A stretch of DNA of 64,000 nt, taken from assembly GCA_046254885.1 (NCBI GenBank), contig CM100994.1, positions 93,766,727-93,830,726 of the forward strand. The letters are read 5' to 3'. This document shows positions 16,776 through 48,533 of this stretch, piece by piece (the stretch's first letter is position 1; each line of letters begins with the position of its first letter). Under the pieces are notes generated by a model that did no database searches, had not been told where the DNA came from, and saw only the letters and a program-made list of their open reading frames with translations. The stretch comes from Sinanodonta woodiana (taxonomy: Eukaryota). The position numbers were made by a program, and so were the translations under genes.

Positions 16776-16967
16776 GAATAAATGCACCTAGTTTTCACAA
16801 GTATTCTGAAAAGATGTCTGTTTGGGATTTTAATACTATGACAGCCTTTTCTAGTAAATTTGAAAATAAATATTATGCTTTTTATAAGAATTGTTATAAT
16901 ATATAAGTAACAATAGTTTCTTTAGAAAAATTTAATTTGTTTAGTGTATTTAATTCTTCTTTTACAG

Positions 16968-17132: not shown

Positions 17133-17369
17133 GTGATAATCATTATTCCCATAATGATTGTTATAGTTTTCTAATAGTATGCTATACAACTAAATATTAA
17201 ACTTTGATTAAATTCCTAGCAATATGGCATTGATAAATCAGTTTTATATAATGCTAAATATGCATGACCTCCTTTCTAAAAAATAAATTGTATACAACAT
17301 TTTGTTTAGAACCTAGAAACAGCACAAAAAATATGAACATATGTAGTTAGCATGCCACTTACCATAATA

Positions 17370-20300: not shown

Positions 20301-23300
20301 TTAGCAAGCATTACATTGTACTGTTAATCACAACATTAGCAAGCATTACATTATACTGTAAATCACCATAACATAAGCAAGCATTACACTACTGTAAATC
20401 ACAACATTAGCAAGCATTACATTGTATTGTAAATCACAACATTAGCAAGCATTACATTGTATTGTAAATCACAACATTAGCAAGCATTACATTGTATTGT
20501 AAATCACAACATTAGCAAGCATTACATTATACTGTAAATCACCATAACATAAGCAAGCATTACACTACTGTAAATCACAACATTAGCAAGCATTACATTG
20601 TATTGTAAATCACAACATTAGCAAGCATTACATTATACTGTAAATCACAACATTAGCAAGCATTACATTGTACTGTAAATCACCATAACATAAGCAAGCA
20701 TTACACTACTGTAAATCACAACATTAGCAAGCATTACATTGTACTGTAAATCACCATAACATTAGCAAGCATTACATTATACTGTAAATCACCATAACAT
20801 TAGCAAGCATTACACTACTGTTAATCACAACATTAGCAAGCATTACACTACTGTTAATCACAACATTAGCAAGCATTACATTGTACTGTAAATCACAGTG
20901 ACATTAGCAAGCATTACACTACTGTAAATCACAACATTAGCAAGCATTACATTATACTGTAAATCACAACATTAGCAAGCATTACATTGTACTGTAAATC
21001 ACAACATTAGCAAGCATTACATTATACTGTAAATCACCATAACATAAGCAAGCATTACACTACTGTAAATCACAACATTAGCAAGCATTACATTGTACTG
21101 TGAATCACAACATTAGCAAGCATTGCATTGTACTGTAAATCACAACATTAGCAAGCATTACATTGTACTGTAAATCACAACATTAGCAAGCATTACATTG
21201 TACTGTGAATCACAACATTAGCAAGCATTACATTGTACTGTAAATCACAACATTAGCAAGCATTACATTGTACTGTAAATCACAACATTAGCAAGCATTA
21301 CATTTTACTGTTAATCACAACATTAGCAAGCATTACATTGTACTGTGAATCACAATAACATTAGCAAGCATTACATTGTACTGTGAATCACAATAACATT
21401 AGCAAGCATTACATTGTACTGTAAATCACAGTTACATTAGCAAGCATTACATTGTACTGTAAATCACAATAACATTAGCAAGCATTACATTGTACTGTAA
21501 ATCAGAATAACATTAGCAAGTATTACATTGTACTGTAAATCACAATGACATTAGCAAGCATTACATTGTACTGTAAATCACAACATTAGCAAGCATTACA
21601 TTTAACTGTTAATCACAACATTAGCAAGCATTACATTGTACTGTGAATCACAATAACATTAGCAAGCATTACTTTGTACTGTAAATCAGAATAACATTAG
21701 CAAGTATTACATTGTACTGTAAATCACAGTGACATTAGCAAGCATTACACTACTGTAAATAACAACATTAGCAAGCATTACATTGTATTGTAAATCACAA
21801 CATTAGCAAGCATTACATTGTACTGTTAATCACAACATTAGCAAGCATTACATTGTACTGTGAATCACAACATTAGCAAGCATTACACTACTGTAAATCA
21901 CAACATTAGCAAGCATTACATTATACTGTAAATCACCATAACATAAGCAAGCATTACACTACTGTAAATCACAACATTAGCAAGCATTACATTGTATTGT
22001 AAATCACAACATTAGCAAGCATTACATTGTACTGTGAATCACAACATTAGCAAGCATTGCATTGTACTGTAAATCACAACATTAGCAAGCATTACATTGT
22101 ACTGTAAATCACAACATTAGCAAGCATTACATTGTACTGTGAATCACAACATTAGCAAGCATTACATTGTACTGTAAATCACAACATTAGCAAGCATTAC
22201 ATTGTACTGTAAATCACAACATTAGCAAGCTTTACATTGTACTGTGAATCACAACATTAGCAAGCATTACATTGTACTGTAAATCACAACATTAGCAAGC
22301 ATTACATTGTACTGTAAATCACAACATTAGCAAGCATTACATTGTACTGTGAATAACAACATTAGCAAGCATTACATTGTACTGGGAATCACAACATTAG
22401 CAAGCATTACATTGTACTGTGAATCACAACATTAGCAAGCATTACATTGTACTGGGAATCACAACATTAGCAAGCATTACATTGTACTGTAAATCAGAAT
22501 AACATTAGCAAGCATTACATTGTACTGGGAATCACAACATTAGCAAGCATTACATTGTACTGTGAATCACAACATTAGCAAGCATTACATTGTACTGGGA
22601 ATCACAACATTAGCAAGCATTACATTGTACTGTGAATCACAACATTAGCAAGCATTACATTGTACTGTGAATCACAACATTAGCAAGCATTGCATTGTAC
22701 TGGGAATCACAACATTAGCAAGCATTACATTGTACTGTAAATCAGAATAACATTAGCAAGCATTACATTGTACTGGGAATCACAACATTAGCAAGCATTA
22801 CATTGTACTGTGAATCACAACATTAGCAAGCATTACATTGTACTGGGAATCACAACATTAGCAAGCATTACATTGTACTGTGAATCACAACATTGGCAAG
22901 CATTACATTGTACTGTGAATCACAACATTAGCAAGCATTACATTGTACTGTGAATCACAACATTAGCAAGCATTACATTGTACTGTGAATCACAACATTA
23001 GCAAGCATTGCATTGTACTGGGAATCACAACATTAGCAAGCATTACATTGTACTGGGAATCACAACATTAGTAAGCATTACATTGTACTGGGAATCACAA
23101 CATTAGCAAGCATTACATTGTACTGGGAATCACAACATTAGCAAGCATTACATTGTACTGTAAATCAGAATAACATTAGCAAGCATTACATTGTACTGGG
23201 AATCACAACATTAGCAAGCATTACATTGTACTGTGAATCACAACATTAGCAAGCATTACATTGTACTGGGAATCACAACATTAGCAAGCATTACATTGTA

Positions 23301-24335
23301 CTGTGAATCACAACATTAGCAAGCATTACATTGTACTGTGAATCACAACATTAGCAAGCATTACATTGTACTGTGAATCACAACATTAGCAAGCATTACA
23401 TTGTACCGTGAATCACAACATTAGCAAGCATTGCATTGTACTGGGAATCACAACATTAGCAAGCATTACATTGTACTGGGAATCACAACATTAGCAAGCA
23501 TTACATTGTACTGTAAATCAGAATAACATTAGCAAGCATTACATTGTACTGGGAATCACAACATTAGCAAGCATTACATTGTACTGTGAATCACAACATT
23601 AGCAAGCATTACATTGTACTGGGAATCACAACATTAGCAAGCATTACATTGTACTGTGAATCACAACATTGGCAAGCATTACATTGTACTGTGAATCACA
23701 ACATTAGCAAGCATTACATTGTACTGTGAATCACAACATTAGCAAGCATTACATTGTACTGTGAATCACAACATTAGCAAGCATTGCATTGTACTGGGAA
23801 TCACAACATTAGCAAGCATTACATTGTACTGGGAATCACAACATTAGTAAGCATTACATTGTACTGGGAATCACAACATTAGCAAGCATTACATTGTACT
23901 GGGAATCACAACATTAGCAAGCATTACATTGTACTGTAAATCAGAATAACATTAGCAAGCATTACATTGTACTGGGAATCACAACATTAGCAAGCATTAC
24001 ATTGTACTGTGAATCACAACATTAGCAAGCATTACATTGTACTGGGAATCACAACATTAGCAAGCATTACATTGTACTGTGAATCACAACATTAGCAAGC
24101 ATTACATTGTACTGTGAATCACAACATTAGCAAGCATTACATTGTACTGTAAATCACAACATTAGCAAGTATTACATTGTACCGTGAATCACAACATTAG
24201 CAAGCATTGCATTGTACTGGGAATCACAACATTAGCAAGCATTACATTGTACTGGGAATCACAACATTAGTAAGCATTACATTGTACTGGGAATCACAAC
24301 ATTAGCAAGCATTACATTGTACTGGGAATTACAAC
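17370..24335. repeat. About 7-kb satellite array. The unit is about 35 bp (cattagcaagcattacattgtactgtaaatcacaa), with 39- and 41-bp variants (..aatcacaat(a/g)acattagc..) and a 29-30-bp variant block at about 18490-19100. About 190 copies. The distal third shows alternating variants (gggaatcac / gtgaatcac) and a periodic cagaataacattagc variant.
   Basis: Direct reading of the sequence. Subfamily structure and alternating variants are visible. Confidence 0.95.
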
Positions 24336-24821
24336 CAGTATTTATTGGCCTTAATGCTACCATACTTTATGATCTTTTCATCACATTTTAAAATGAATAA
24401 CATATTAGCATAAATTAATTAATTTGCTAAATTTGTTATATTATTTATAACTGCAAATATTTCATGATTGAGAAGTTTAGCAGTACCCATTTCATCAATG
24501 ATGTTTTGCAACTGACCAGCTAGAAGGACTGTTGAATGTTGTTTGTTAGAATTACTGCAGGTGATGTTTAGTTTGTAATTTTATTAAACATATATATGTT
24601 ACTGTCAAATGTGCTTTCATTTTATTTGAAGTTTGACAATCCCTTTATGTTGAATAAAACAGTCAACATCTAATTTGGTTTGAAGTTTGATAATCCTTTT
24701 CTGTTGAATAATGCAATCACATTTAATTTTGTTTGTTTTGGTAAATCCTTTTTTGTTGAAATAACATGATCCCATTCCTGTTTTACATTGCCTAGCAATA
24801 CAAACACACATAATACTGAAG

Positions 24822-27800
24822 TACCATATTTTGGTGTGTATAACGCACACTTTTTTAACCTAATTTTCTTATCTGAAGTCGGGTGTTCGCGTTGTATACA
24901 AGAACTAAAAAACAAAGATTTTTTCCAGGTCGATCTGAAGAGGATGATGGCACTATAACCGCTTATATGTATCACATTCACAACTTGTGAAATATTAAAT
25001 CCATTATACATTGCAATGTAACTAAAATGTTTAACTGTACTACGGTACTTGCCGTATTAAAGAAATAAATAATGCTTACAAATAGTCTTGTTCTTTGATT
25101 GCTTATGTTAAAAACTGGTTTCATTTCACATCACTGTGTCAAGTTTTGTTCTGTGCCTTGGCTGTAAATACATGTACATTGTAACGTCCCGAGCTTTATT
25201 TATTAACAATGTCAGTTTTGACCAGATGTCAACATGGGCTTTTAATCACAAGACAGAAAGCTACTTAAGTTTAAATGATTTAATGAACGATAATAAGGAT
25301 AAATATTAACTGTGCAATATGCACGAACAGATCAAGAATATGATCATAATGTTCAGTCAAAACTCCGAAATAGTTCTAAAATGAGTTGAATATATTTGAA
25401 AATTCCTTCATCACATAAATATGTGGCTCAGTGTAATGTTAAGAAAGTAAACAGTCACTGAAAACAGTTAAACTTGATGTATTTCTCAGTGATAGAATAT
25501 AACCCCAAACAAATGGGATAATAAATAACACGTATTTAAAACGATACCACTTGAATGTGTTTCCCAGTGAATTTATATGTTGTGGTCCAGAATGCACTAA
25601 TATTTCTGAATTTATATTTAGAACTGTTTTTCCTTCTTTATAGTCAACTATATATCACATTAATGTAATATAGAAATAATGAATACTCCGTGTAGAAATA
25701 TTATAATTAATTCTCCCTTCTATACGTCTAGTTATTTACCGTAGCAACGGTACTGATATTTTCATATATTTATTTGATTGAATATCCACATATATTTCCT
25801 AGGGAAGCATCAGTCTTTAATACTGAATAATATATTGTAGTTTAATTTCATATCATTTGGAAGATTATATCATCCGTAATGATTTATATTGTTACAATGC
25901 GATCTATATAGTACACTTACATTAGTTGTATTAAGCTCTCTGTTCACTTCTTGTCTACAGTCTTTGCCGGTCAGAATGCGTCTGCAAAACACTTCACACG
26001 ACTGGTATTTATACCCTTGAGACCCATTGGTCTTACGCGGAGACTGATGGGAAGAATATAGGTCGTAAGTGCGTGGGGGAAACACACGAGTGGTTTGATG
26101 ATACTTAACAACATGTTAGGAACGCTCAAAAGTATGATGGCGGGTGAATTGTGATTCGCACTAATACAAATATTTTGGTAATGGTTTCTTAGTATTTGAA
26201 CACTTGATGTGAAGATATTCAAGTCAGAATTAAACACTTTATCTCAGAAAATGGATATACTAAGCAAAATAGTGTTAGACAATTTAAAAGAGAACAAACC
26301 ACAATGACCAAAAAGACCAATTTGGACCAACATTGACAACGGAATACAAACCCGTACGAAGTAAGTGCCAATCACAATCACCCAAATTATCAATATATTA
26401 ATACTCTAAAATATCATGAATGTGATATTAAAACATTTGTACACATATTTATTATTCCTAGCTTTGATGAATCCCTACAAGTCGTTTTATGTCTTCATAA
26501 ATGTACTAAAATATATCTTATTTTGTTGACCTTTGGTATAGACATGAACCACTAAAAGTTAATATTTAATGCTAAAAAGTGTGAAAATTATATTTAAACG
26601 AGCCACAATCACTTTTATATTTTATAGCACCATAATTTATCACATACATAATGACTGGCAACTTGTTCAAAAGGTGTGCAAAGTGCCGGATTGGAGCGGA
26701 ACAAATACCACTGTGTGGATTACCGTACTTGTTCTGTAAATCTTCAGTATTCCATAACTGTTGGTCTAATCAAATTTTTCTTCATTTTTTGTTGTTGGTT
26801 GAATTGAAATATACAGTGGAACCCCACTATAACACGGTAGTTGGGAGCCATAAAATCTGACCGTGTTATGAACCGTGCCATGTTATAAGCAACCATGTAC
26901 AATACCAACATGTTTTTGGATTTAATGGGGGGGGGGGTTGTTGCATAGAGTCTGGTGCGAAAATGCATGGCACAATTACCATTTTTAATCAATATATATT
27001 AAATGAGAAAAACATTTGCTGTGGTAACAAAAATTGCAGATTTAATATATTACTTTATTCAGAGAACCATGCATTGGTACATACACGTGTCTAATTTATA
27101 TATACATGTATACTATATTGCTTGAAAAGATTATCAACACCGTGTACTCAGCAGCAATTCCTGTAACATACATTGAATCCATAATACAAATATTTCCATT
27201 GAATATATCCATGCATGGATGTAAAATATTCAATATTTTTGTCACAGAACATTATGTGACTGAATTTAATGGAAAAAAAATACATAACGGGTGTACGTAA
27301 TGAATGATGAAATAGTACTTGTACCTAGATTAAATATCGGAAGCTAATGTGTATTCTTATAATAACTACATGTACATCTCAGGTTCTTTCTGTCTCTGAA
27401 TTTAGTCATTGTAAATTTCAGCACATTTTCCCACCCAAGCTGCTAGTCAAAGACCTTTGAATTTGCCGCCCAGCTAGTCCCGCTAATACGTCATGTTCTT
27501 TTGATGTACTCTAATAAATACAGCAGGTAGAACTGGCTGTGTTTTAAACACATAATAAAGTAATCAACACTAACTTTGTCTCCCAGTTATGCGTCCCAGA
27601 TTTAAAAAAAAAAGAAAGTTGCATTCAACTATGCGTAATTAAGCATTTCCGAGACCTCTGTGTCATATACATTTTATATTACTTTATTTCTCATCTGTCA
27701 AAAGTTATTTTTTAATTTTTTTAAATAAAAACTCTGATTTTTAGCTGCTTTCTGCTAATGTCACGTTTGCTCAATGCAAAGTCAATTATTGTTCTCAGTT

Positions 27801-28592
27801 GTAGAATTCGAATTTCCTAGTCAACAGATTGCATAAAACAACACTGCCAAGCCACGCGCGAATGTTGGCGGCTTTTTTTCTTTGATGCTGTTTAAATCAT
27901 TGCCCCCTGATTTGAACAAGTTTAGCTCGGCAGTTCACTTTGATGATAAACAATGTATTTATTTTAATTGATTTATACATTCTGGTGAGATTTTTTATTA
28001 TCAACTGCTGCATTGGCTGTTGCTTAGTTGTGTATGAATACATAGAACATATATCAGAGATTACAGAAACGATTGTATTAGGAATGCATTCAAGACAAAC
28101 AAAAAGTAGACTTGATGGCTTCATTGCTCAGGGATCAGGAATAATAATATTGACATTTATGAGCTGTCATTTTTCAACAATAAACAAAGATCAAAGTTCT
28201 CAGTAGGCCCAGCAATTGGTTCATATTCTGGCACATAACTAGAATTTTTAAAAGTAATTTTTAGGAGCCATACAACGATTATTTTATATTCAATTTTGTG
28301 TGTGATTTCCTCCTCAAAATTATAATACATTTTCTACATGATTTTTCCCCCTGCAGTTTTTAGACGAGTATGAGAATGTTAATTAAACTCTTGACATTTG
28401 TTATTTTTATACTTACTAATGTTAATGTCAGAGTAACTTTAGGGGACATATTTTTTTGCGACTACGGGTTCTAAAATGCATTATCTCACATGCACGTTAT
28501 ATGGCAGAACTATGTTTTTTCCACTTATTTTGGGTTGAAAATTGGGGTGTGCGTGATACATCGGTGCACATTATACACACCAAAATATGGTA
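24822..28592. mobile_element. Non-autonomous TIR element, copy 1 (family B). It has roughly 28-bp TIRs (taccatattttggtgtgtataacgcacac / gtgcacattatacacaccaaaatatggta) and carries a roughly 1.46-kb nested insertion at about 25185-26648 relative to copy 2. It also contains a G9 homopolymer at about 26927.
   Basis: The termini are inverted repeats. The body is co-linear and about 85-90% identical to 57537-59880, apart from the block 25185-26648, which copy 2 lacks. Both copies are flanked by TA. Confidence 0.75.
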
Positions 28593-30155: not shown

Positions 30156-30162
30156 GTAGAGT

Positions 30163-30450
30163 AGCAGCAGAGGGGTCGTATCTGACAGCTTTTTTTGCTT
30201 AAACACGATTAAGGCCTCAAAACGATAAAACGAGCCTTCCTTCAAAATCTCACATTTCGAACCAAAAAAAAATTTAGTCCCCGTTTGTCAAACAGAGCCC
30301 TAGCAGTTAAAGCCGTTGTTTGCCAAAATGAGACCTATAACAGTATTTTTTTTGTTAACATATATCACCGTTGCAACAGGCTCGTGCTTCCGTTTCCATG
30401 GCTAATCAAACTTTTGCCTGAAATTTGTAAAGTTCGACCCCTCTGCTGCT
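30163..30450. repeat. Left TIR (288 bp). The TIR is itself bounded by 16-bp inverted repeats (agcagcagaggggtcg ... cgacccctctgctgct).
   Basis: Read directly in the sequence. The same nested structure appears in the right TIR at 35442-35723. Confidence 0.9.
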
Positions 30451-30463
30451 AAGGGTTACGGTT

Positions 30464-31134
30464 TCAACAAAAAAAATTATCAAGTCCGATACGATATCGT
30501 GTTTGAGGATCATATAAATTAATCGTTACAAATCCATGCGGAGCCGACTGAGCATGACTAAAAAAGTTTTTAAAAACATTAAAATCCATGTTTCCACCGC
30601 ACCAAGTTTGCCAGATATTGCGTAGCGTATGCGTATCAACGCCGTTAAACACAGCAAGGATGTTACAGTTGTCCCTGATTACCTTTGGAATCTGAGTGTA
30701 TCGTTGAGTGACATATCACATCAGTGCTTTTATGCCTTCCTCGCGAAAATATTCTAGCGGGTTTTTTTTGATTGTCTAACATAACGTCATCGTACACAAC
30801 TAATTTGGTAACGCTACCGTCTATATCGTCAATGGATGGTGCGTCATCGATATCTGTAATAAACTCTGACACTGTTTTCGGTGATCTCTGATGCATTATC
30901 GTTAAAATCCTTTAACACCTCGTAGCACCGTTGATCATCTACGCTAGGTGCAACTAAATATAACTTGTTCCATTTCATCCATCTTATTATTAGATTGAGT
31001 AGCAATTGCGTTTTTCCGCTCCCAGATGGTCCGATTATAATCATCCGGATAGAATTTGGTAGCGCTGCAACGTGTTTAACCGGTTCCCTTGTCGTAGTCG
31101 CTGAAAAATCAATTACATTCATATCGCTATACAT
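30464..31134 (-). pseudogene. FtsK/HerA-superfamily, poxvirus-A32-like DNA-packaging ATPase of about 223 aa, disrupted by two frameshifts (near 30850-30895 and near 30705-30715).
   Basis: Three consecutive minus-strand ORFs in different frames carry, in order: Walker A IIIGPSGSGKTQLLLNL; then ..LYLVAPS.., then Walker B KLVVYDDVM.. and SRGRH; then (after a frame change) VTQRYTQIPKVIRDNCNILAVFNGV.., which is the Q..iPk.iR.N.n motif region characteristic of A32/polinton/virophage packaging ATPases. Confidence 0.8.
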
Positions 31135-31139
31135 TAATT

Positions 31140-31430
31140 ATGGATCTATATTGTGTAAAGTGTAAAACGCGTACTAGTACAAACGATATGATGACGGTTA
31201 CCACAAAAAGCAATCGAGCAGCCCTTACTGGTAAGTGTGCAACATGCGGTGTAAAGAAATTTAAATTTATTTCCGCTAAGGGTATTAAAAAAAGCGAGGA
31301 GGTGATATTGCAGCCAAAGTATCAAAACTCTCCGGAATTCGGGTTAACATCTATAACATCAAATACATCAGCTGGTCTTGGTGGTCGATCGACTGCAGCT
31401 TCGTGTTTTGCCTTTACCCTATTATACTGA
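31140..31430 (+). CDS. Small C4 zinc-ribbon protein (CVKC..17 aa..CATCG). The zinc-ribbon core of about 55 aa lies exactly in the gap between two minus-strand ORFs.
   Basis: MDLYCVKCKTRTSTNDMMTVTTKSNRAALTGKCATCGVKKFKFISAKG: CxxC-x17-CxxC with basic residues. The 3' half of the ORF overlaps the convergent 183-aa ORF and may be non-coding. Confidence 0.45.
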   Translation: MDLYCVKCKTRTSTNDMMTVTTKSNRAALTGKCATCGVKKFKFISAKGIKKSEEVILQPKYQNSPEFGLTSITSNTSAGLGGRSTAASCFAFTLLY

Positions 31431-31873
31431 ATATGATTAGCGTTATTAGTAGTATCCTTAGCGAACATCATTGACGGGCCTGCTGACCTTGTATAGTCGT
31501 CAGAATATCTTGCTAGCCCGATTACTGTTGTTGCAACATCGACATCGTTTTCTATAGATTCGATTTCTCGCCCGTCAATGAGATATCTTGCTGAACCAAA
31601 TAACGCCATGATGCCGTTGTTGACAAAACCAACTCGGACATTTGCGTCATCTGCGTATGGATTATTATTTGCTTGAATAAGTTCTCCTTCGATTTCGATA
31701 AACGCTTCACACGGCAAAAAGTATTTACTGGTATCATGGACTTGAAGTTTAATTCGCGATCGTAGGTCAGGTTGTTCTGCATGATAAGAATAATACTGAT
31801 AATCACGGACAGAATCATCCTTGCGCACTGGCGCGTCCATATCGAAGGCCGGATCAGCTGTTCTTTGAAACAT
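31322..31873 (-). CDS. 183-aa ORF in the viral-like element. Function unknown. A structural or capsid-like role is inferred from its position next to the packaging ATPase.
   Basis: Uninterrupted ORF with CpG-rich viral-like composition. No motif I can assign with confidence. Its start overlaps the stop of the upstream 169-aa ORF in another frame, which suggests the two may be fragments of one larger gene. Confidence 0.4.
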   Translation of the reverse strand: MFQRTADPAFDMDAPVRKDDSVRDYQYYSYHAEQPDLRSRIKLQVHDTSKYFLPCEAFIEIEGELIQANNNPYADDANVRVGFVNNGIMALFGSARYLIDGREIESIENDVDVATTVIGLARYSDDYTRSAGPSMMFAKDTTNNANHIQYNRVKAKHEAAVDRPPRPADVFDVIDVNPNSGEF

Positions 31874-31902
31874 ATTATTGTAATTGCGTTGACGTTTTCA
31901 AT

Positions 31903-32412
31903 TCATCGTCGTTTTCGTTGTAAATGTTTCAAATTTCTTTTTAAATTCTCTGACGCTAGACCGCTTCCTGCTATCGCGTTCAACAGCGTATTCGTTGTTG
32001 TATCAGAAGATGGCGAGGCCGCTAGCAACGCAGCCGGAGCCGCCAACGAAGTTAGTTTTTTTTCTACTGCATCGTTTATTACGCTGGCTACACTTTTAGG
32101 CATCACTGTGGTAGAAGGTAACGGCGTTGGTTTTTGTCGCTGCCGTCTCACCAGTGATACTGTTTTGTCTTTTGCTGCAGAAAGTGCCTTGCTGGCAAGG
32201 CTACCAACAGCGCTGATTCCTTTATCACGTAACACATCTATGGCTTTCGTTGATAGTTGTTTAGCTAACGGTGCCACCTTGGGAGCCATTCTTGCAAATA
32301 AACCCGCTATGGTGTCACCGAGACCATTCCCATAAAACGCGCGGTAAACTGGTAATCGTGAGTTTACAACGTAAACGCTGACTGGTTTATCATGGTTGTA
32401 ATGTATGATCAT
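31903..32412 (-). CDS. 169-aa ORF, rich in Ala/Ser/Lys and low-complexity. Possibly a minor virion or membrane-interacting protein, or part of a fragmented larger gene.
   Basis: ORF only. Its composition resembles the A/G/S-rich minor capsid or cement proteins of adeno- and polinton-like viruses. This is inference. Confidence 0.35.
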   Translation of the reverse strand: MIIHYNHDKPVSVYVVNSRLPVYRAFYGNGLGDTIAGLFARMAPKVAPLAKQLSTKAIDVLRDKGISAVGSLASKALSAAKDKTVSLVRRQRQKPTPLPSTTVMPKSVASVINDAVEKKLTSLAAPAALLAASPSSDTTTNTLLNAIAGSGLASENLKRNLKHLQRKRR

Positions 32413-32474
32413 CTTATAACAACTAGCAGTTTTTTAATTATGAAAAACCCCACGAAGATAAATTGACCCACAGT

Positions 32475-32885
32475 TTAGTCGCTGTGATAACCATCCATGA
32501 GTTCGTCTATGGGTTCTCGATATGTGCCAACGTCCATGATACCCCCACGGAATAAACGCGCGCAAATATCTGGTGATTCATTAATTATTTCCGGTAAATT
32601 ATTTCCGGCTCGTATTCCTCCAATAAGAACCTGAAGACGTGATATATCACTGAGAATATTGCCTGGACAAGTAATACTAGCGCTTCCAACTACGCCACTA
32701 CGTAAATATCCGTGTCCTTTTTTAGAGGTGCCAGTTACCCCATCGTCTTTTTGTTTTTGTTTTTGTAGCCACTCGACCCGTCTACTTTTAACGAGATCAC
32801 TAAAAGCTTTGAAATTTTCATCTTTTGGTGGTAGTGTATTTCTGTGTATCCGCGCCAAGTACATCATTCGAATCCATTTATCCAA
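32475..32885 (-). CDS. 136-aa ORF, function unknown.
   Basis: ORF co-oriented with the neighbouring element genes. Confidence 0.35.
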   Translation of the reverse strand: MDKWIRMMYLARIHRNTLPPKDENFKAFSDLVKSRRVEWLQKQKQKDDGVTGTSKKGHGYLRSGVVGSASITCPGNILSDISRLQVLIGGIRAGNNLPEIINESPDICARLFRGGIMDVGTYREPIDELMDGYHSD

Positions 32886-32997
32886 CGCGGATACATTTTC
32901 CTCGTAACCTGGATTTGCATGTATCTCTCGTTGACGCAGGTAAAAATGTTCAACAGTAAAATCAATTACTTGATCCCATTTATCAAAGCCTCTAATT

Positions 32998-33501
32998 TTA
33001 TCTATTGTACTTTTTTTTAAATACTTTACTGGGTATATTTTCTCTGATATCTCTTTGTTGCTGTATTATATCATCTATTTCTTGTTGTGTTTCTTGTTGT
33101 AATAGCTCTTCTTCTGGTTGCATTGCGGTGGCACCTGGCTCCTCTTCATCAGCCATTGTAACATAAGGTTGCTGTTGTTCAGATGTTGATGTTATAGCAA
33201 GTGGCTGCTTCACATCCCCCCGTCGGCGATATGCTGTAGCAACTGCTATTTCCACAGGAAGTGTTTCCAGATACTTTTTTGATTGTTTGGTCTGCGCTGT
33301 TATCTTTTCAAGTTCGCCAAGAATGGGTGTAGTTGCACTGGTTATTGGCTTAAATAACTGTTCACTTCCAACAACAAAATCGTCTTTTTGTTCTTGGCGA
33401 GTCTGCAACTGCTTCCTTAGCCTATCTCGTACAGGAATAAACTGTTTAATAGCAGTCAAACGCTCCCTGGCCGATTTGGTTGTAAGCGATTCATTCACCA
33501 T
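32998..33501 (-). CDS. 167-aa ORF, acidic and Gln-rich with predicted coiled or disordered character. Possibly a scaffold- or phosphoprotein-like product.
   Basis: ORF. An EEEPGATAMQPEEELLQQETQQEIDDIIQQQ acidic stretch. Confidence 0.35.
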   Translation of the reverse strand: MVNESLTTKSARERLTAIKQFIPVRDRLRKQLQTRQEQKDDFVVGSEQLFKPITSATTPILGELEKITAQTKQSKKYLETLPVEIAVATAYRRRGDVKQPLAITSTSEQQQPYVTMADEEEPGATAMQPEEELLQQETQQEIDDIIQQQRDIRENIPSKVFKKKYNR

Positions 33502-33723
33502 GTATTATTACGTTACAGTTTCAAAATGATTTTCAAATTTCCCGCGAGTGTATATAAACACAGACTGGTACTATGTTAAACTGCATGTTAGCGAGTACAG
33601 TAACATTTTTACCAAGGAATGCTAAATAGTTGTCTTATACATATAATTACACGCAGTAACAATTTTACGTATATAAATTGCAAAAAAAATATAAGTTTTG
33701 TTTGTTATTAACAGAATTAATTA

Positions 33724-34026
33724 TTAATTTGATTCCTCGATAATCTTTTTTATGTGCTTGACTTGCTGGTAAATCTCTTTTCGGACCTCGAAAGCATTGC
33801 CAAGTCGTTTCCGTATTGTTTCAACGATAGTGTACAATTCAATAAATACTTTTACGTCTTGGTTATATAAATTTTGATGAATCGCATATTGTAATCGCTT
33901 TTTAAAGGCATATGACCTAGGTAGCGTATTACGACCTTTTTTTGATTGCTGGTCAATAAGTTCATACTGCGATACAATATTTTCGACGTCAAGTTTATCA
34001 TTCAAGACGACCCCTTGATTTTTCAA
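33724..34026 (-). CDS. 100-aa basic ORF, the first gene of the minus-strand block. Function unknown.
   Basis: ORF followed by an AT-rich putative promoter region at 34030-34130. Confidence 0.3.
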   Translation of the reverse strand: MKNQGVVLNDKLDVENIVSQYELIDQQSKKGRNTLPRSYAFKKRLQYAIHQNLYNQDVKVFIELYTIVETIRKRLGNAFEVRKEIYQQVKHIKKIIEESN

Positions 34027-34165
34027 TTTTGAAATTTCATCCGTTATATTTTTTATATCAACACTAATATTTTTATCTTGATCATTTATTATTATATTAA
34101 CAATTTATATCTTTGATTTTAAAAAAAAAACAAAACAAGAAAAACAAGGCAAGACAATGCAGGCA

Positions 34166-34220
<55 letters not shown>

Positions 34221-34222
34221 TT
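34166..34222. repeat. (ATT)19 microsatellite followed by a poly-T run.
   Basis: Read directly in the sequence. Confidence 0.95.
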
Positions 34223-35039
34223 TTTTTTTTTTTTAAAAATGCAAAATAATTGACAGGCTTATTATGAGCGGTTATTCATTATCACGAGTCCCTTATTCAG
34301 GCCTTTGTGTCTCCATAGGGTCTTTTTACAAACACATATTTTACATTTTTCACATATAGACAACACCAAGGTCAGTCAAACCCATTCTGGGTTTGCCCAT
34401 TCCCGGGCATTTCCGACCTTTGCCCTATGATCGTTTCTGTAGGCCGGTAGCCCATTCTGTGCTACCCTATTGGGATCCTCGTGAGAATTTAGAGCTTTCA
34501 TCAATGCCTGTCATTTATTTTTACGTCCACACACTTTGACGCCCAGATAAGTAATCTCCGGCAAGCAACCTATCTCAGCAAACACTGTGATAGGTTACTT
34601 ATAAGGTACATATTTGGGGGTGGGCGGATCCTTCGAAAGCCTACGAACCAATCAAAAGCAACCCAGAAAATTAACCTGGTTGCATTGACAGAAAACAGTC
34701 AACCTTACGACCGAGGTAACGGCGTGGGTTGCTTTTTTTTATTTGCTTTGCAAGCTTTCGAAAGCTCCAAAAGCTTAACGACTCATATTCTATATAAGCT
34801 GAATGATGCAGCGATATCAAGGAAAAGGTTGTGCTAATTTGAATCGCTTTGAACCATTAAATCGCTAAGAACTTATTAATAGCGTTCAACAGCACTTAAA
34901 TAAAACCAAATATTTGAAACAAATAATAAACAAAAGAATACAGCGTTGCGATAACAGCATAAATTTCATTAGTTTTTATTTTAAAAAAATGAATTAATCA
35001 AAACATTAATTGGACTTCAAGGGGAGATCACTCTAAGTG

Positions 35040-35432
35040 ACTTTTATGGAGTTACCTCCCCTTAAAAAATTATCTTCCCTTGAATTTTTTTATCTCCCCT
35101 TGAAATTTTTTTTATCTCCCCTTGAAAAAAATATCTCTCCTTTAAAAAAATTTCTCCCCTTTAAATTTTTTTTTTATCTCCCCTTGAAATTTTGTATCTC
35201 CCTTTGAATTTTTTTATCTCCCCTTGAAAAACAGAGTTATCTCCTCTTAAAAAAGTTATCTCCCCTTAAAAAAATTACCTCCCTTGAAAAAATAATTACC
35301 TCCCTTTGAAAAAAATTATCTCCCCTTAAAAAAGTTATCTCCCCTTAAAAAAGTTATCTCCCTTAAAAAAAGTTATCTCCCCTTAAAAAAATACCTCCCC
35401 TTAAATTTTTTTTATCTCCCCTTGAAAAAAAA
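35040..35432. repeat. Tandem repeat of about 19-21 bp (ttatctccccttgaaaaaa), about 19 copies, inside the element and abutting the right TIR.
   Basis: Read directly in the sequence. Confidence 0.9.
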
Positions 35433-35441
35433 AATTAACAC

Positions 35442-35723
35442 AGCAGCAGAGGGGTCGAACCCTACAAATTTCAGGCAAAAGTTTGATTAGCTGTGGAAAC
35501 GGAAGCGCGAGCCTGTTGCAACGGTGATATATTTTAACAAAAAAATACTGTTATAGGTCTCATTTTGGCAAACAACGGCTTTAACTGCTAAAGCTCTGTT
35601 TGACAAACGGGGACTAAATTTTTTTGTTTGTTTGAAATGTGAGATTTTGAAGGAAGGCTCGTTTTATCGTTTTGAGGCCTTAATCGTGTTTAAGCAAAAA
35701 AAGTTGTCCAATACTCTGCTGCT
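35442..35723. repeat. Right TIR (282 bp) of the viral-like element. It is also bounded by the 16-bp inverted repeats agcagcagaggggtcg ... cgac(c/t)c.. / ..ctctgctgct.
   Basis: It is the reverse complement of 30163-30450. Confidence 0.9.
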
Positions 35724-36715
35724 AGAGTAAAACAGAAATAAGTAAATTACATTTTTCTGAAATATTTCAAGGTAGATTTTGTCAGCATTTAGAAAATAAC
35801 GCATTGTTTCTGTGAACATAGAAAAAGGAAAGCAAATAATGGCATTTGAGGTATACAGGAATAGTCAGTGTTTGTCCTTGTGTTTTTGGATCACCTGGCC
35901 TTACAGTCAAGTGAGCTTTTAATGTCGTCCTCTATTTGTATGCCATTCATCAACATTTGTTTTGTTATCTCTCTGGAGACTGATTGCTATCCAGTTTTGA
36001 TCAGGTAGGAATATGGGCTTATATCATCCAGAGTTTTAAAGAGAAAGATAATGACCAGGATTGTGTGTATCCTTGGCATGACTGCACTCAAGAGATTGTA
36101 TTTCTGATCTGATTTTGTATTAGGTTGGTAGGTAGGCTTAAATCATCAATATTTCAAATGAATACTGTTGTGAGTGAGCTCCATGCAGTATGTTAATGAG
36201 ATGATATTTTGTCTAATTGACTAAAATTGTCAGTATGTTTGTAACTCAATTTCTTATCAGATATTTATCAAACATGTTTAAGCTGTCCATGAATTTATTA
36301 TGAGCAAAATCTGTACATATTAATAAAGTGTCCTTGCATCAGATTTGTTGAGCTTCTTATCAGTCAGAACCTGATTGTGATCAAACCTGATTGTGATCAA
36401 ATCCAATTTGACTTTGTACGTTTTCTAAAATCATCAAGAATATAGTTATGAGCTGTTTATCAAACTTGATAAATTGGCTTATGTCATTAAGATCTTGATT
36501 TATTTGTTCTGTGTGAGATTCACACATCACTGGTGTCATCGAACTGACTGAGTTAGTCAGCATTCTAGCAAATATACTTCTGATGAGATTTTAATCAAAT
36601 TAGCTTATATTTTCAAGATGTTGGATGAGTTTGTTTAGGAGTAAATTCTGAATATTTACAAGTTAATACACTTTGATCTGTATCAATAAAGTATTTATTC
36701 CATCTTATTGTCTGA

Positions 36716-38089: not shown

Positions 38090-40950
38090 GTAGGTCTGTA
38101 GTTTGTAATAGCTGGTCTCTGCCTAAATTGTGGAAACAGTTTGCAATAGCTAGTCTCTGCCTAAGCTGTGGAGACAGTTTGTAATAACTGGTCTCTGCCT
38201 AAACTGTGGAGAGTTTGCAATAGCTGTTCTCTGCTTAAACTGTGGAGAGTTTGCAATAGCTGGTCTCTGCATAAACTGTGGAGAGTTTGTAATAACTGGT
38301 CTCTGCCTAAGATGTGGAGAGTTTGCAATAGCTGGTCTCTGCCTAAACTGTGGAGAGTTTGCAATAGCTGGTATCTGCCTAAACTGTGGAGAGTTTGCAA
38401 TTGCTGGTCGCTGCATAAACTGTGGAGACAGTTTGTAATAACTGGAACTGTGGAGACAGTTTGTAATAACTGGTCTCTGCCTAAACTGTGGAGAGTTTGC
38501 AATAGCTGGTGTCTGCCTAAGTTGTGGAGAGTTTGCAATAGCTGGTCTCTGCCTAAACTGTGGAGACAGTTTGTAACAACTGGTCTCTGCCTAAACTGTG
38601 GAGAGTTTGCAATAGCTGGTCTCTGCATAAACTGTGGAGACATTTTGTAATAGCTGGTCTCTGCCTAAACTGTGGAGAGTTTGCAATAGCTGGTCTCTGC
38701 CTAAGTTGTGGAGACAGTTTGTAATAACTGGTCTCTGCCTAAACTGTGGAGACAGTTTGTAATGACTGGTCTCTGCCTAAACTGTGGAGAGTTTGCAATA
38801 GCTAGTCTCTAAGTTGTGGAGAGTTTGCAATAGCTGGTCTCTGCCTAAACTGTGGAGACAGTTTGTAATAACTGGTCTCTGCCTAAACTGTGGAGACAGT
38901 TTGTAATAACTGGTCTCTGCCTAAACTGTGGAGACAGTTTGTAATAGCTGGTCTCTGCCTAAGTTGTGGAGACAGTTTGTAATAGCTTGTCTCTGCCTAA
39001 ACTGTAGAGACAGTTTGTAATAGCTGGTCTCTGCCTAAACTGTGGAGACAGTTTGCAATAGCTGGTCTCTGCCTGAGTTGTGGAGACAGTTTGTAATAAC
39101 TGGTCTCTGCCTAAATTGTGGAGACAGTTTTTAATAGCTTGTCTCTGCCTAAATTGTGGAAACAGTTTGCAATAGCTAGTCTCTGCTTAAACTGTGGAGA
39201 CAGTTTGTAATAACTGGTCTCTGCCTAAGCTGTGGAGAGTTTGCAATAGCTGGTCTCTGCCTAAACTGTGGAGAGTTTGCAATAGCTGGTATCTGCCAAA
39301 GTTGTGGAGAGAGTTTATAATAACTAGTCTCTGCCTAAACTGTGGAGAGTTTGCAATAGCTGGTCTCTGCATAAACTGTGGAGACAGTTTGTAATAACTG
39401 GTCTCTGCATAAGCTGTGGAGACAGTTTGCAATAGCTGGTCTCTGCATAAACTGTGGAGACAGTTTGTAATAACTGGTGTCTGCCTAAACTGTGGAGAGT
39501 TTGCAATAGCTGGTGTCTGCCTAAGTTGTGGAGAGTTTGCAATAGCTGGTCTCTGCCTAAACTGTGGAGACAGTTTGTAATAACTGGTCTCTGCCTAAAC
39601 TGTGGAGAGTTTGCAATAGCTAGTCTCTGCCTAAGTTGTGGAGAGTTTGCAATAGCTGGTCTCTGCATAAACTGTGGAGACAGTTTGTAATAGCTTATCT
39701 CTGCCTAAATTGTGGAGAGAGTTTGTAATAACTGTTCTCTGCCTAAACTGTGGAGACAGTTTGTAATAACTGGTCTCTGCCTAAACTGTGGAGACAGTTT
39801 GTAATAACTGGTCTCTGCCTAAACTGTGGAGACAGTTTGTTATAACTGGTCTCTGCATTAACTGTGGAGACAGTTTGTAATAGCTGGTCTCTGCCTAAAC
39901 TGTGGAGACAGTTTGTAATAACTGGTCTCTGCATAAACTGTGGAGACAGTTTGTAATAACTGGTCTCTGCCTAAACTGTAGAGACATTTTGTAATAGTTG
40001 GTCTCTGCCTAAACTGTGGAGACAGTTTGCAAGAGCTAGTCTCTGCCTAAACTGTGGAAACAGTTTGTAATAGCTGGTCTCTGCCTAAACTGTGGAGACA
40101 GTTTGTAATAGCTAGTCTCTGCCTGAGTTGTGGAGACAGTTTGTAATAGCTGGTCTCTGCCTAAGTTGTGGAGACAGTTTGTAATAACTGGTCTCTGCCT
40201 AAACTGTGGAGACAGTTTGTAATAGCTAGTCTCTGCCTAAGTTGTGGAGACAGTTTGTAATAACTGGTCTCTGCCTAAACTGTGGAGACAGTTTGTAATA
40301 GTTAGTCTCTGCCTAAGTTGTGGAGACAGTTTGTAATAGCTAGTCTCTGCCTAAGCTGTGGAGACAGTTTGTAATAGTTAGTCTCTGCCTAAGTTGTGGA
40401 GACAGTTTGTAATAGCTGGTCTCTGCCTAAACTGTAGAGACAGTTTGTAATAGCTGGTCTCTGCCTAAACTGTGGAGACAGTTTTTAATAGCTGGTCTCT
40501 GCCTAAACTGTGGAGACAGTTTGTAATAGCTGGTGTCTGCCTAAACTGTGGAGACAGTTTGTAATAGCTAGTCTCTGCCTGAGTTGTGGAGACAGTTTGT
40601 AATAACTGGTCTCTGCCTAAACTGTGGAGACAGTTTGTAATAGTTAGTCTCTGCCTAAGTTGTGGAGACAGTTTGTAATAGCTAGTCTCTGCCTAAGCTG
40701 TGGAGACAGTTTGTAATAGTTAGTCTCTGCCTAAGTTGTGGAGACAGTTTGTAATAGCTGGTCTCTGCCTAAACTGTAGAGACAGTTTGTAATAGCTGGT
40801 CTCTGCCTAAACTGTGGAGACAGTTTTTAATAGCTGGTCTCTGCCTAAACTGTGGAGACAGTTTGTAATAGCTGGTCTCTGCCTAAACTGTGGAGACAGT
40901 TTTTAATAGCTAGTCTCTGCCTAAGTTGTAGAGACAGTTTGTAATAGCTG
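38090..40950. repeat. 2.9-kb satellite with a 38-41-bp unit (ctgtggagacagtttgtaatagctggtctctgcctaaa), about 70 copies.
   Basis: Read directly in the sequence. The overlapping 160-aa ORFs on both strands are artifacts. Confidence 0.95.
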
Positions 40951-43289: not shown

Positions 43290-45545
43290 CAAGATTGAAA
43301 TTAAGTATTGATGAACATAAACTTGGTCTAGTTGAATACAGAAAATCTTGTGATGAACATAAACATGGTCTAGTTGAATACAGAAAATCTTGTGATGAAC
43401 ATAAACTTGCTCTAGTTGAATACAGAAAATCTTGTGATGAACATAAACTTGGTCTAGTTGAATACAGAAAATCTTGTGATGAACATAAACTTGCTCTAGT
43501 TGAATACAGAAAATCTTGTGATGAACATAAACTTGCTCTAGTTGAATACAGAAAATCTTGTGATGAACATAATAAACTTGCTCTAGTTGAATACAGAAAA
43601 TCTTGTGATGAACATAAACTTGCTCTAGTTGAATACAGAAAATCTTGTGATGAACATAATAAACTTGCTCTAGTTGAATACAGAAAATCTTGTGATGAAC
43701 ATAAACTTGGTCTAGTTGAATACAGAAAATCTTGTGATGAACATAAACTTGGTCTAGTTGAATACAGAAAATCTTGTGATGAACATAAACTTGCTCTAGT
43801 TGAATACAGAAAATCTTGTGATGAACATAAACTTGCTCTAGTTGAATACAGAAAATCTTGTGATGAACATAAACTTGGTCTAGTTGAATACAGAAAATCT
43901 TGTGATGAACATAATAAACTTGCTCTAGTTGAATACAGAAAATCTTGTGATGAACATAATAAACTTGCTCTAGTTGAATACAGAAAATCTTGTGATGAAC
44001 ATAAACTTGGTCTAGTTGAATACAGAAAATCTTGTGATGAACATAAACTTGGTCTAGTTGAATACAGAAAATCTTGTGATGAACATAAACTTGCTCTAGT
44101 TGAATACAGAAAATCTTGTGATGAACATAAACTTGCACTAGTTGAATACAGAAAATCTTGTGATGAACATAATAAACTTGGTCTAGTTGAATACAGAAAA
44201 TCTTGTGATGAACATAAACTTGGTCTAGTTGAATACAGAAAATCTTGTGATGAACATAAACTTGCTCTAGTTGAATACAGAAAATCTTGTGATGAACATA
44301 AACTTGCTCTAGTTGAATACAGAAAATCTTGTGATGAACATAAACTTGCTCTAGTTGAATACAGAAAATCTTGTGATGAACATAATAAACTTGCTCTAGT
44401 TGAATACAGAAAATCTTGTGATGAACATAAACTTGCTCTAGTTGAATACAGAAAATCTTGTGATGAACATAATAAACTTGCTCTAGTTGAATACAGAAAA
44501 TCTTGTGATGAACATAAACTTGGTCTAGTTGAATACAGAAAATCTTGTGATGAACATAAACTTGGTCTAGTTGAATACAGAAAATCTTGTGATGAACATA
44601 AACTTGCTCTAGTTGAATACAGAAAATCTTGTGATGAACATAAACTTGCTCTAGTTGAATACAGAAAATCTTGTGATGAACATAATAAACTTGCTCTAGT
44701 TGAATACAGAAAATCTTGTGATGAACATAAACTTGCTCTAGTTGAATACAGAAAATCTTGTGATGAACATAATAAACTTGCTCTAGTTGAATACAGAAAA
44801 TCTTGTGATGAACATAAACTTGGTCTAGTTGAATACAGAAAATCTTGTGATGAACATAATAAACTTGCTCTAGTTGAATATAGAAAATCTTGTGATGAAC
44901 ATAAACTTGCTCTAGTTGAATACAGAAAATCTTGTGATGAACATAATAAACTTGCTCTAGTTGAATACAGAAAATCTTGTGATGAACATAAACTTGCTCT
45001 AGTTGAATACAGAAAATCTTGTGATGAACATAAACTTGGTCTAGTTGAATACAGAAAATCTTGTGATGAACATAAACTTGCTCTAGTTGAATACAGAAAA
45101 TCTTGTGATGAACATAAACTTGCTCTAGTTGAATACAGAAAATCTTGTGATGAACATAATAAACTTGCTCTAGTTGAATACAGAAAATCTTGTGATGAAC
45201 ATAAACTTGGTCTAGTTGAATACAGAAAATCTTGTGATGAACATAAACTTGGTCTAGTTGAATACAGAAAATCTTGTGATGAACATAAACTTGCTCTAGT
45301 TGAATACAGAAAATCTTGTGATGAACATAAACTTGCTCTAGTTGAATACAGAAAATCTTGTGATGAACATAATAAACTTGCTCTAGTTGAATACAGAAAA
45401 TCTTGTGATGAACATAAACTTGCTCTAGTTGAATACAGAAAATCTTGTGATGAACATAAACTTGGTCTAGTTGAATACAGAAAATCTTGTGATGAACATA
45501 AACTTGCTCTAGTTGAATACAGAAAATCTTGTGATGAACATAAAG
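43290..45545. repeat. 2.3-kb satellite with 60/63-bp units (tcttgtgatgaacataaacttg(c/g)tctagttgaatacagaaaa, with an optional +aat), about 37 copies. It is flanked by degenerate related repeats at 43100-43290 and 45545-45960.
   Basis: Read directly in the sequence. The 898-aa and 760-aa ORFs across it are repeat artifacts (perfectly periodic translations). Confidence 0.95.
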
Positions 45546-47319: not shown

Positions 47320-48470
47320 TAAATTATGTAAAGTAGATTCATTTCAGTTATCCCCTTCAAAAGTATCTCAGATCTTATGTACAGTAGATTCATTTCAGTT
47401 ATCCCCTTCAGAAGTATCTCAGATTTTATGTACAGTAGATTCATTTCAGTTATCCCCTTCAGAAGTATCTCAGATTTTATGTACAGTAGATTCATTTCAG
47501 TTATCCCCTTCAGAAGTATCTCAGATCTTATGTACAGTAGATTCATTTCAGTTATCTCCTTCAAACGAATCTCAGATCTTATGTACAGTAGATTCATTTC
47601 AGTTATCCCCTTCAGAAGTATCTCAGATTTTATGTACAGTAGATTCATTTCAGTTATCCCCTTCAGAAGTATCTCAGATCTTATGTACAGTAGATTCATT
47701 TCAGTTATCCCCTTCAGAAGTATCTCAGATTTTATGTACAGTAGATTCATTTCAGTTATCCCCTTCAGAAGTATCTCAGATTTTATGTACAGTAGATTCA
47801 TTTCAGTTATCCCCTTCAGAAGTATCTCAGATCTTATGTACAGTAGATTCATTTCAGTTATCTCCTTCAAACGAATCTCAGATCTTATATACAGTAGATT
47901 CATTTCAGTTATCCTCTTCAGAAGTATCTCAGATTTTATGTACAGTAGATTCATTTCAGTTATCCCCTTCAGAAGTATCTCAGATTTTATGTACAGTAGA
48001 TTCATTTCAGTTATCCCCTTCAGAAGTATCTCAGATCTTATGTACAGTAGATTCATTTCAGTTATCTCCTTCAGAAGTATATCAGATCTTATGTACAGTA
48101 GATTCATTTCAGTTATCTCCTTCAAACGAATCTCAGATCTTATGTACAGTAGATTCATTTCAGTTATCCCCTTCAGAAGTATCTCAGATTTTATGTACAG
48201 TAGATTCATTTCAGTTATCCCCTTCAGAAGTATCTCAGATTTTATGTACAGTAGATTCATTTCAGTTATCCCCTTCAGAAGTATCTCAGATTTTATGTAC
48301 AGTAGATTCATTTCAGTTATCCCCTTCAGAAGTATCTCAGATCTTATGTACAGTAGAATTCATTTCAGTTATCCCCTTCAGAAGTATCTCAGATCTTATG
48401 TACAGTAGATTCATTTCAGTTATCTCCTTCAGAAGTATCTCAGATCTTATGTACAGTAGATTCATTTCAG
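47320..48470. repeat. 51-bp minisatellite (atgtacagtagattcatttcagttatccccttcagaagtatctcagatctt), about 22 copies.
   Basis: Read directly in the sequence. The 451/343/341-aa ORFs are artifacts. Confidence 0.95.
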
Positions 48471-48533
48471 TTTAATTTCATTGAAATTATCTCATATATT
48501 TTGTACAGTTGTAAATCTTTTTATTGCTTACAG

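Follow-up and report, generated by a model that had tools for sequence, protein, structure and literature searches.

We analysed a 64,000-nucleotide stretch of the unionid mussel Sinanodonta woodiana (assembly GCA_046254885.1, contig CM100994.1), referred to here as the window and numbered from its first letter. An intron in this window contains a 5,561-bp insert at positions 30163-35723. A first reading of the letters (the original prediction) had described it as a compact cassette bounded by terminal inverted repeats (TIRs) and carrying an A32-type packaging ATPase. We compared the insert with contigs, identified below by L-numbers, that derive from metagenomes or from two unionid genera, Potamilus and Sinanodonta.

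Borders and composition of the insert

The features of the insert and its target-site duplication (TSD) are the following, ORF standing for open reading frame and PLA2 for phospholipase A2.

30158-30162: TSD copy 1 (AGAGT), read from the sequence
30163-30451: arm beside the ATPase gene, 289 nt, with outer end AGCAGCAGAGGGGTCG and, as inner end, the inverted copy CGACCCCTCTGCTGCT; inverted repeat with 35442-35723
30464-31134, minus strand: pseudogene of an A32/FtsK-HerA-type packaging ATPase, in three frames; Pfam Pox_A32 and homologues
31140-31340, plus strand: DUF5679 zinc-ribbon N-terminal stump of a PLA2X-type gene, ~67 codons; Pfam E=1.6e-12
31340-31352: deletion junction between capsid codon ~175 and PLA2X codon ~67; blastn against L125, L001, L002, L084-L086 and L092
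31352-31873, minus strand: N-terminal ~175 codons of a double-jelly-roll major capsid protein, with the ORF stop at 31322; homologues
31903-32412, minus strand: gene2, 169 aa, a conserved virion-module protein and the sole intact gene; homologues
32475-33501, minus strand: gene1, ~340 aa, with a coiled-coil/acidic N-terminal half and a conserved C-terminal end; tblastn to a 363-aa protein of L001
33724-34085, minus strand: ORF8, a small family protein of ~120 aa; 23 homologues in an exhaustive HMMER search, best E=1e-22
34111-35044: non-coding stretch, an A/T run and (ATT)18 followed by a CpG-containing, GC-rich block at 34251-34800; sequence and composition
35045-35437: subterminal array of ~20 copies of a 19-20-nt unit (TTATCTCCCCTTAAAAAAG), at this end only
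35442-35723: 282-nt arm on the gene1 side, its outer motif shortened by a 6-nt deletion; inverted repeat with 30163-30451
35724-35728: TSD copy 2 (AGAGT), read from the sequence

The two arms are inverted relative to each other; their alignment of 289 columns shows 92.7% identity, the differences being 10 transitions, 3 transversions and 9 gap columns. Each is edged by inverted copies of a terminal motif of ~16-30 nt, the first arm begins 13 bases past the ATPase stop codon, and the termini of the whole element read 5'-AGCAGCAG...CTGCTGCT-3'. AGAGT abuts both outer ends as a perfect 5-bp duplication, a match with a chance of ~1/1024 at a fixed offset. A 6-bp or a hAT-like 8-bp duplication at shifted borders was also considered, and neither fits the sequence. 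Taken singly, the arms have unmatched flanks (AGAGT-arm-AAGGG and AACAC-arm-AGAGT); the outer pair alone is identical. Since the single arms have no duplication of their own, the duplication belongs to the whole 5,561-bp unit. Thus, the copy was inserted as a single unit. A third copy of the arm was not found within the 64-kb window.

The element has a GC content of 0.374, against 0.328 for the remaining window, and a CpG observed/expected ratio (o/e) of 1.16 (224 CpG), compared with 0.23 in the remaining window, 0.14-0.19 in the 500-bp flanks and 0.06-0.3 in the surrounding intron. On the plus strand, exons match PARP (3.4-9.4 kb), VIT (11.3-17.2 kb) and VWA_3 (41.3-50.6 kb). This is the architecture of PARP4, and the host gene is PARP4-like; the insert lies antisense to it, in the intron that separates the VIT from the VWA exons. 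In all these respects the original prediction was borne out: it had described ~285-bp repeats about 93% identical, with AG..CT termini and an AGAGT duplication, a segment of higher GC and abundant CpG, and a location in a PARP4 intron.

Genes, gene remnants and the deletion junction

A Pfam search was run on all ORFs of the window, and its informative matches were Pox_A32 and DUF5679 alone; the direct search returned nothing for the capsid stump, gene1, gene2 and ORF8. Six co-oriented minus-strand ORFs had been predicted. Minus-strand ORFs there are, but they are eight pieces of five genes, and a sixth gene is present as a stump on the plus strand.

The predicted A32-type ATPase stands: its motifs are present and its N-terminal piece matches Pox_A32 (PF04665) with E=3e-05 and 24.1 bits, above the Pfam cutoff of 22.8. 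We found 51 homologues; the intact ones are 219-221 aa long, 64-89% identical, and all carry PF04665. Nucleotide alignment with L125, L084, L085 and L002 placed the lesions of the window copy at two 2-bp deletions, both outside homopolymers. Next to it, the DUF5679 stump has lost the rest of its gene. In relatives, the DUF5679 gene runs on into a PLA2 domain of parvovirus type (PF08398; YxGxG…HDxxY), which is followed by the integrase gene. Here the PLA2 domain is gone and the ORF runs into antisense capsid sequence as far as 31430, so that its homologues (up to 96% identity) span just its first 70%.

One of the remaining ORFs, which the original prediction had offered as capsid candidates, is indeed the N-terminal third of a double-jelly-roll capsid protein. 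Its homologues in Sinanodonta, Potamilus and metagenomes are 54-79% identical, and several of them contain the double-jelly-roll-like domain PF21738. It is also 30% identical (E=8e-18) to the capsid protein of the distant relative L103, which itself matches PF21738 at 6e-54. The full-length capsid gene is present in L001, L125 and L123. In blastn comparisons, homology on the capsid side stops at 31352 and homology on the PLA2X side begins at 31337-31340. These limits define one sharp junction, at which the capsid and PLA2X genes are fused tail to tail. A metagenome contig from JGI, L124, is 98.7% identical to the capsid stump (window positions 31420-31749 were compared) down to ~31455, below which it diverges abruptly from the window while remaining capsid sequence; either subfamilies have recombined here or the metagenome contig is chimeric through its assembly. 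So close a relative of part of the capsid stump indicates that the subfamily was recently active.

Gene2 is 64% identical to a 155-aa protein of L001, has a like position in L125, L004 and L123, and shows weak similarity to a 124-aa protein of L103. Gene1 contains one frameshift, in an A-run near 33010-33030, and aligns by tblastn to the L001 363-aa protein in two segments in different frames; its N-terminal half also matches a 370-aa protein of L103 (E=3e-07). The interval 31322-33501, which it had been suggested to read as one gene, thus holds three: gene1, gene2 and the capsid stump. In ORF8, the A-run that follows MIKIK is one base short, either through a true frameshift or through a fault of the assembly. 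In Potamilus, a homologue lies behind the putative penton gene (L004, 14392-14770).

As had been stated, no polymerase, integrase or protease was detected in the window by tblastn with the proteins of the family. The penton gene, like the adenain-like protease, is missing from this copy. The idea that the element retained its morphogenetic module was therefore not upheld: the capsid gene breaks off near codon 175, the core, protease and putative penton genes are gone, and the ATPase is a pseudogene.

Between gene1 and the nearer arm lie 1.9 kb (33502-35441) that have no DNA or translated match in any relative locus compared, and an array like that at 35045-35437 was not seen beside the arms of relatives. 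Upstream of ORF8, the minus strand of the GC-rich block 34251-34800 contains CCAAT-like and TATAAG strings, and two small hairpins with a common CAGAATGGG loop. The non-coding part gave no Rfam match at the gathering threshold and no tRNA, and its fold is unexceptional (z=-1.84). CrcZ, the sole Rfam match by E-value, scores 18 bits against a gathering score of 95 and is meaningless.

Relatives and the full-length parent

The full-length parent is ~14-15 kb long. Its virion part consists of gene1, gene2, the double-jelly-roll capsid gene, a pX-like core gene, an adenain-like protease, a small transmembrane (TM) protein and a putative penton; the remainder comprises a superfamily 1 (SF1) helicase replicase with an HNH tail, an rve integrase, the zinc-ribbon and PLA2 gene (PLA2X) and the A32 ATPase. 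These genes are enclosed by inverted arms of ~250-300 nt that end in the same AGCAGCAG...CTGCTGCT as the window copy. The parental gene order is inferred mainly from L002, L004, L123, L103 and short contigs.

Two groups of contigs show what lay on either side of the junction. L001, a 4.6-kb contig from ENA, keeps the gene order of the window from gene1 onwards until, inside the capsid gene, the colinearity breaks; past the break L001 still has the remainder of that gene, followed by a core-like protein of 160 aa and an adenain-like ORF. The adenain assignment rests there on a weak Peptidase_C5 match of a partial ORF (E=0.0025, below the Pfam threshold). L002 and nine short contigs (L084-L092) contain the ATPase gene, a divergent DUF5679-PLA2 gene at its 5' side and then the rve integrase, whose N-terminus is found in L002 and L085-L092. 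The putative penton of the relatives is a conserved gene of 265-290 aa with a weak DUF5901 match.

One close relative is L125, a 14.7-kb ENA contig that is CpG-rich throughout (CpG o/e 0.83-1.48) and whose ATPase gene is 82% identical in DNA to that of the window. It encodes a TM protein, a 290-aa putative penton, PLA2X, an rve integrase (2948-3896) and an SF1-helicase protein (AAA_30/AAA_19) whose tail is of HNH type. Two further ORFs are a zinc-finger and an HNH_3 ORF, and the remaining genes are those of the ATPase, gene1, gene2, the capsid protein and the core protein. By subtraction against L125, the window copy is short of about 10-11 kb. A middle of ~10 kb has been deleted, comprising the replicase, the integrase, the protease and most of the capsid gene, and this is why the element looks miniature. 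Both the junction at 31340-31352 and the 14-15-kb relatives support the proposal of the original prediction that this is an internally deleted, non-autonomous derivative of polinton type. Its other proposal, a miniature element or an undescribed small dsDNA (double-stranded DNA) virus lineage, is refuted by the existence of those relatives (L125, L001, L002, L004, L123).

L125 has peculiarities of its own. Its PLA2X-integrase-helicase-HNH block (2368-9360) is inverted with respect to nine other contigs and edged by inverted repeats of ~50 nt (2368-2416 and 8302-8352). Its ATPase gene is joined head-to-tail to gene1 through an arm-like spacer of ~340 bp that contains one terminal motif only, the forward one. 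A circular or concatemeric form, a tandem integration and an assembly artefact are all possible. One particular artefact, a collapse of the inverted arms by the assembler, was rejected: the orientation it needs is absent from a linear TIR genome.

Two loci come from Potamilus streckersoni. L004 contains gene1, gene2, the capsid gene, the putative penton, the ORF8 homologue, a Penelope-like insertion and the SF1-helicase protein. The insertion (15544-17298), between the ORF8 homologue and the helicase gene, has a reverse-transcriptase ORF with a GIY-YIG-like end; judged by eye from its translation, it is probably a Penelope-like element inserted in the Potamilus viral element. L123 has its left arm at 9188-9444, 35 bp ahead of the gene1 start, and further encodes the core protein, the adenain-like gene, the TM protein and the putative penton. 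Its region 9188-17260 consists of three tandem gene1-gene2-capsid units, of which the later ones open with the AGCAGCAG motif exactly past the stop codon of the preceding capsid gene (11319, 14270). Such a pattern resembles the outcome of end-into-self integration or of nested integration.

Arms of the same build recur throughout. In L002, L084, L087, L088 and L090, a forward motif occurs 10-130 nt past the ATPase gene and its inverted copy ~250-300 nt further on, and the sequences outside these arms are mutually unrelated. The arms lie at 2669-2920 in L002 and 1238-1538 in L084, after the ATPase, as against the position before gene1 in L123. The interior of the window arm 30163-30451 is 77% identical to the arms of L002 and L088, and the inner inverted copy of the motif is a conserved feature across the family. 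Since such arms are found at the ATPase or gene1 ends in at least five independent insertions, they are regular ends of the family and not chance miniature inverted-repeat transposable elements (MITEs).

More distant relatives, L122 and L103, have ATPases 34-40% identical and the same order of gene1, gene2, capsid and core. L122 is a complete TIR-bounded element of 14.7 kb, with inverted ends of 135 nt, a family B DNA polymerase of the protein-primed type (pPolB, PF03175) and an rve integrase (PF00665). L103 contains the same morphogenetic and integrase (PF00665) genes, but an SF1-helicase protein; it starts with AGCAGCAGGGGGGG… after 101 nt of unrelated flank, and its terminal motif is that of the window family. 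The two loci are syntenic, with integrase, PLA2X, ATPase, gene1, putative penton, capsid and core in common, and differ in the replication gene: a 953-aa SF1-helicase protein in L103 (614-3475) versus a 1306-aa pPolB in L122 (704-4624). This difference is a swap of the replication module within one lineage. L103, L125 and L004 share a protein of ~950 aa with the SF1 helicase (AAA_30/AAA_19) at its C-terminus, and the N-terminal 770 aa of the L103 protein gave no Pfam match, no PDB sequence match and no BLASTP similarity to the pPolB of L122. These findings do not support descent from a classical Polinton with pPolB: in the close relatives L125 and L004 the SF1-helicase protein takes the place of pPolB, which occurs in the distant L122 only.

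In the metagenome scan, close relatives were confined to contigs of 1-2 kb, and the longer loci, L103 and L122, are distant. A scan of IMG/VR with the ATPase alignment returned aquatic contigs resembling polinton-like viruses (PLVs) at ~30% identity and no close relative. P0050 (L003), a 26%-identical PLV-like contig, was set aside as uninformative.

Origin of the copy, known systems and surroundings

Together, these results indicate that 30163-35723 is very probably one integrated, defective copy of a polinton-like dsDNA virus-transposon family (Maverick/adintovirus/PLV type) of unionid mussels. The integrase of the family would have acted on the two outer terminal motifs and made a 5-bp staggered cut in the target, so that the unit was inserted whole. 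Since the copy encodes no enzyme genes, it is movable in trans only, and any movement, past or future, would depend on proteins supplied by intact relatives. Today it is inert intronic DNA.

Whether the damage preceded the insertion is the next question. We lean towards a copy that arrived already defective and was moved in trans. The element's CpG o/e falls within the range of L125 and is undiminished in a CpG-depleted intron, and of the 13 substitutions between the arms CpG sites account for only 2, with four pairs of adjacent double changes. Differences of this kind are not of the CpG-decay type and point to damage inherited from a donor rather than accumulated in place; the argument assumes that the insert is methylated like its surroundings. 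The converse sequence of events, in which an element of ~15 kb inserted at full length and later acquired its 10-kb deletion, frameshifts and arm differences in place, is possible although rather unlikely. Against it, the element shows no CpG loss, and a donor-inherited origin fits the arm differences better. In its favour, a search with the two chimeric ORFs found no other copy with the same junction, and the sequences closest to the two stumps (96% for DUF5679, 98.7% in DNA for the capsid) are undeleted at this point. Internal deletion of integrated elements is also commonplace. Most vertebrate Mavericks are degraded (PMC8097293).

The other explanations fare worse. As each arm is self-contained and edged by inverted copies of the terminal motif, as in a MITE, one could imagine a composite transposon, with two independent MITEs of ~290 bp flanking viral DNA and arms that are not viral ends. 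This is quite improbable given that five contigs with unrelated outer flanks have arms of like build and sequence family immediately after the ATPase, that in Potamilus an arm immediately precedes gene1, that the distant L103 likewise ends in the terminal motif, that the window contains no further arm, and that the single arms have no duplication of their own. Compact size, co-oriented ORFs and viral hallmark genes might still suggest a genuine dsDNA virus or mini-polinton lineage of ~5.5 kb, its gene set complete as seen. That reading is extremely improbable: comparison with many relatives shows the capsid and PLA2X genes both cut at one sharp junction, the ATPase gene is frameshifted twice, and every relative with enough sequence continues into integrase, protease, full capsid gene and replicase. 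Equally hard to credit is an assembly chimera, or a contaminating viral contig joined into the intron, which the original prediction had named as a possible refutation and for which the abrupt change of composition at both borders might speak; the perfect duplication lies exactly at the ends of the inverted arms, and both flanks belong to the same PARP4-like gene, with its exons in the right order.

Several observations nevertheless weigh against reading the insert as a defective copy of this family moved in trans. Besides the missing second copy of the junction, no database protein shares either chimeric ORF tail, and the duplication is 5 bp long, not the 6 bp usual for Polintons/Mavericks. 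The unmatched 33502-35441 may mean that the element was further rearranged or took up foreign sequence. The genes of L125 are arranged differently (ATPase, arm-like spacer, gene1, and an inverted integrase/replicase block), the parent was reconstructed without an intact full-length copy from the same species, and the frameshifts of gene1 and ORF8, both in A-runs, could be assembly errors.

A further proposal goes beyond a defective copy, and we regard it as doubtful: the copy would be a mini-genome moved, or even packaged, in trans by an active, formally undescribed, animal-infecting PLV lineage of unionids. If so, this lineage would combine an SF1-helicase replicase, an rve integrase, a zinc-ribbon-PLA2 protein, adenain and a double-jelly-roll capsid, and its ends would be modular arms of ~290 nt edged by inverted integrase-recognition motifs. 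Arms, mini-genomes and full genomes could then all be substrates of one integrase, and the head-to-tail junction of L125 and the motif-led units of L123 would be traces of circular or self-integrated intermediates.

Among known systems, Polintons/Mavericks share with the window copy the long inverted arms, trinucleotide-repeat termini of AG...CT type, a short target duplication, the double-jelly-roll capsid and the A32 ATPase, and with its relatives the rve integrase and the adenain-like protease; L122 even has pPolB and complete TIRs. The window copy differs by its 5-bp duplication, the inner inverted motif on its arms and the absence of pPolB and integrase, and its close relatives L125 and L004 by carrying an SF1-helicase replicase for pPolB. 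Retroviral-type (rve) integrases give target duplications of 4-6 bp. The integrase gene falls in the deleted interval, and the lack of pPolB, integrase and a 6-bp duplication is explained by the copy being a deletion derivative of a PLV-like relative, and not by its being something new. Mavericks usually give a 6-bp duplication, and their end motifs in vertebrates are (AG)3 or (AGT)2, compared with (AGC)2AG here (PMC8097293).

Alpha adintoviruses (PMC8502044) are likewise animal-associated and have a hexon-like capsid, ATPase, adenain, a pX-like core, a parvovirus-type PLA2 gene (PLA2X), an rve integrase, inverted terminal repeats and host integration. They are defined with PolB, however, whereas Alpha PolB is absent from the close relatives described here, where the PLA2 domain sits behind a DUF5679 zinc ribbon; the window copy has lost that domain. 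Alpha adintoviruses possess PLA2X, and in some MELD viruses PolB gives way to S1H (PMC8502044). In PLVs, an S1H fused to an inactivated pDNAP is known (Tlr1-like; PMC5499653). As in those PLVs, an SF1 helicase replaces pPolB beside the same morphogenetic module in L103, L125 and L004; unlike most PLVs, which that paper (PMC5499653) describes as devoid of an integrase, the mussel family encodes one of rve type. Non-autonomous deletion derivatives of DNA transposons also keep their ends and duplication and lose their enzymes by internal deletion, but no amplified family with this junction is shown, and 5.6 kb is far above MITE size.

Unionidae are reported in a preprint to have the highest endogenous dsDNA viral load of the eukaryotes surveyed, up to 16% of an assembly, in regions assigned to PLVs and Orthopolintovirales (10.1101/2025.04.19.649669), and recent activity of Polintons is reported for Megalonaias nervosa (PMC9976758). 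The family described here, whose homologues bear the database names Sinanodonta woodiana and Potamilus streckersoni, agrees with these regions in host group and viral class, and likewise has a very large number of copies, many of them degraded. The copy is an ordinary defective member of this known, very abundant unionid polinton-like family. Those surveys (10.1101/2025.04.19.649669, PMC9976758) are catalogues, and the gene-level anatomy of the family and this deletion derivative are not described there.

The locus itself matters little, being one dead intronic copy among the tens of thousands of unionid polinton/PLV-derived regions in published surveys. Its value is that of a specimen: a clean, TSD-bounded copy that fixes the ends of the family (AGCAGCAG…CTGCTGCT) and its 5-bp duplication. 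In addition, its relatives reveal an animal-associated lineage that combines an rve integrase and PLA2X with an SF1-helicase replicase, not pPolB. The family, more than the copy, might merit formal description for its replicase swap, modular arms, L125 join and L123 tandem units. It bears on the exchange of replication modules among polintons, adintoviruses and PLVs, and may bear on why freshwater mussels hold so much DNA of this kind.

Other repeats occupy the rest of the window. The introns of the PARP4-like gene are packed with long minisatellite arrays of 26-51-nt units, including 17374-24335, 38100-40950, 43309-45544, 47324-48472, 49079-50315 and 61773-63193; one array, of a 35-nt unit, is 7 kb long, and part of the arrays have strong GC skew and are nearly CpG-free. 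A repeat of ~2.4 kb is present in two direct copies of 86.6% identity (24821-25179 and 26645-28592, split by ~1.5 kb, versus 57534-59880). Its CpG o/e of 0.5-0.7 is above that of the surrounding intron, and it is probably another, younger transposable element. Finally, a 194-aa ORF on the minus strand at 4676-5257 resembles, judged by eye, the C-terminal part of a LINE-type (long interspersed nuclear element) reverse transcriptase (…ILLYGAETW…).

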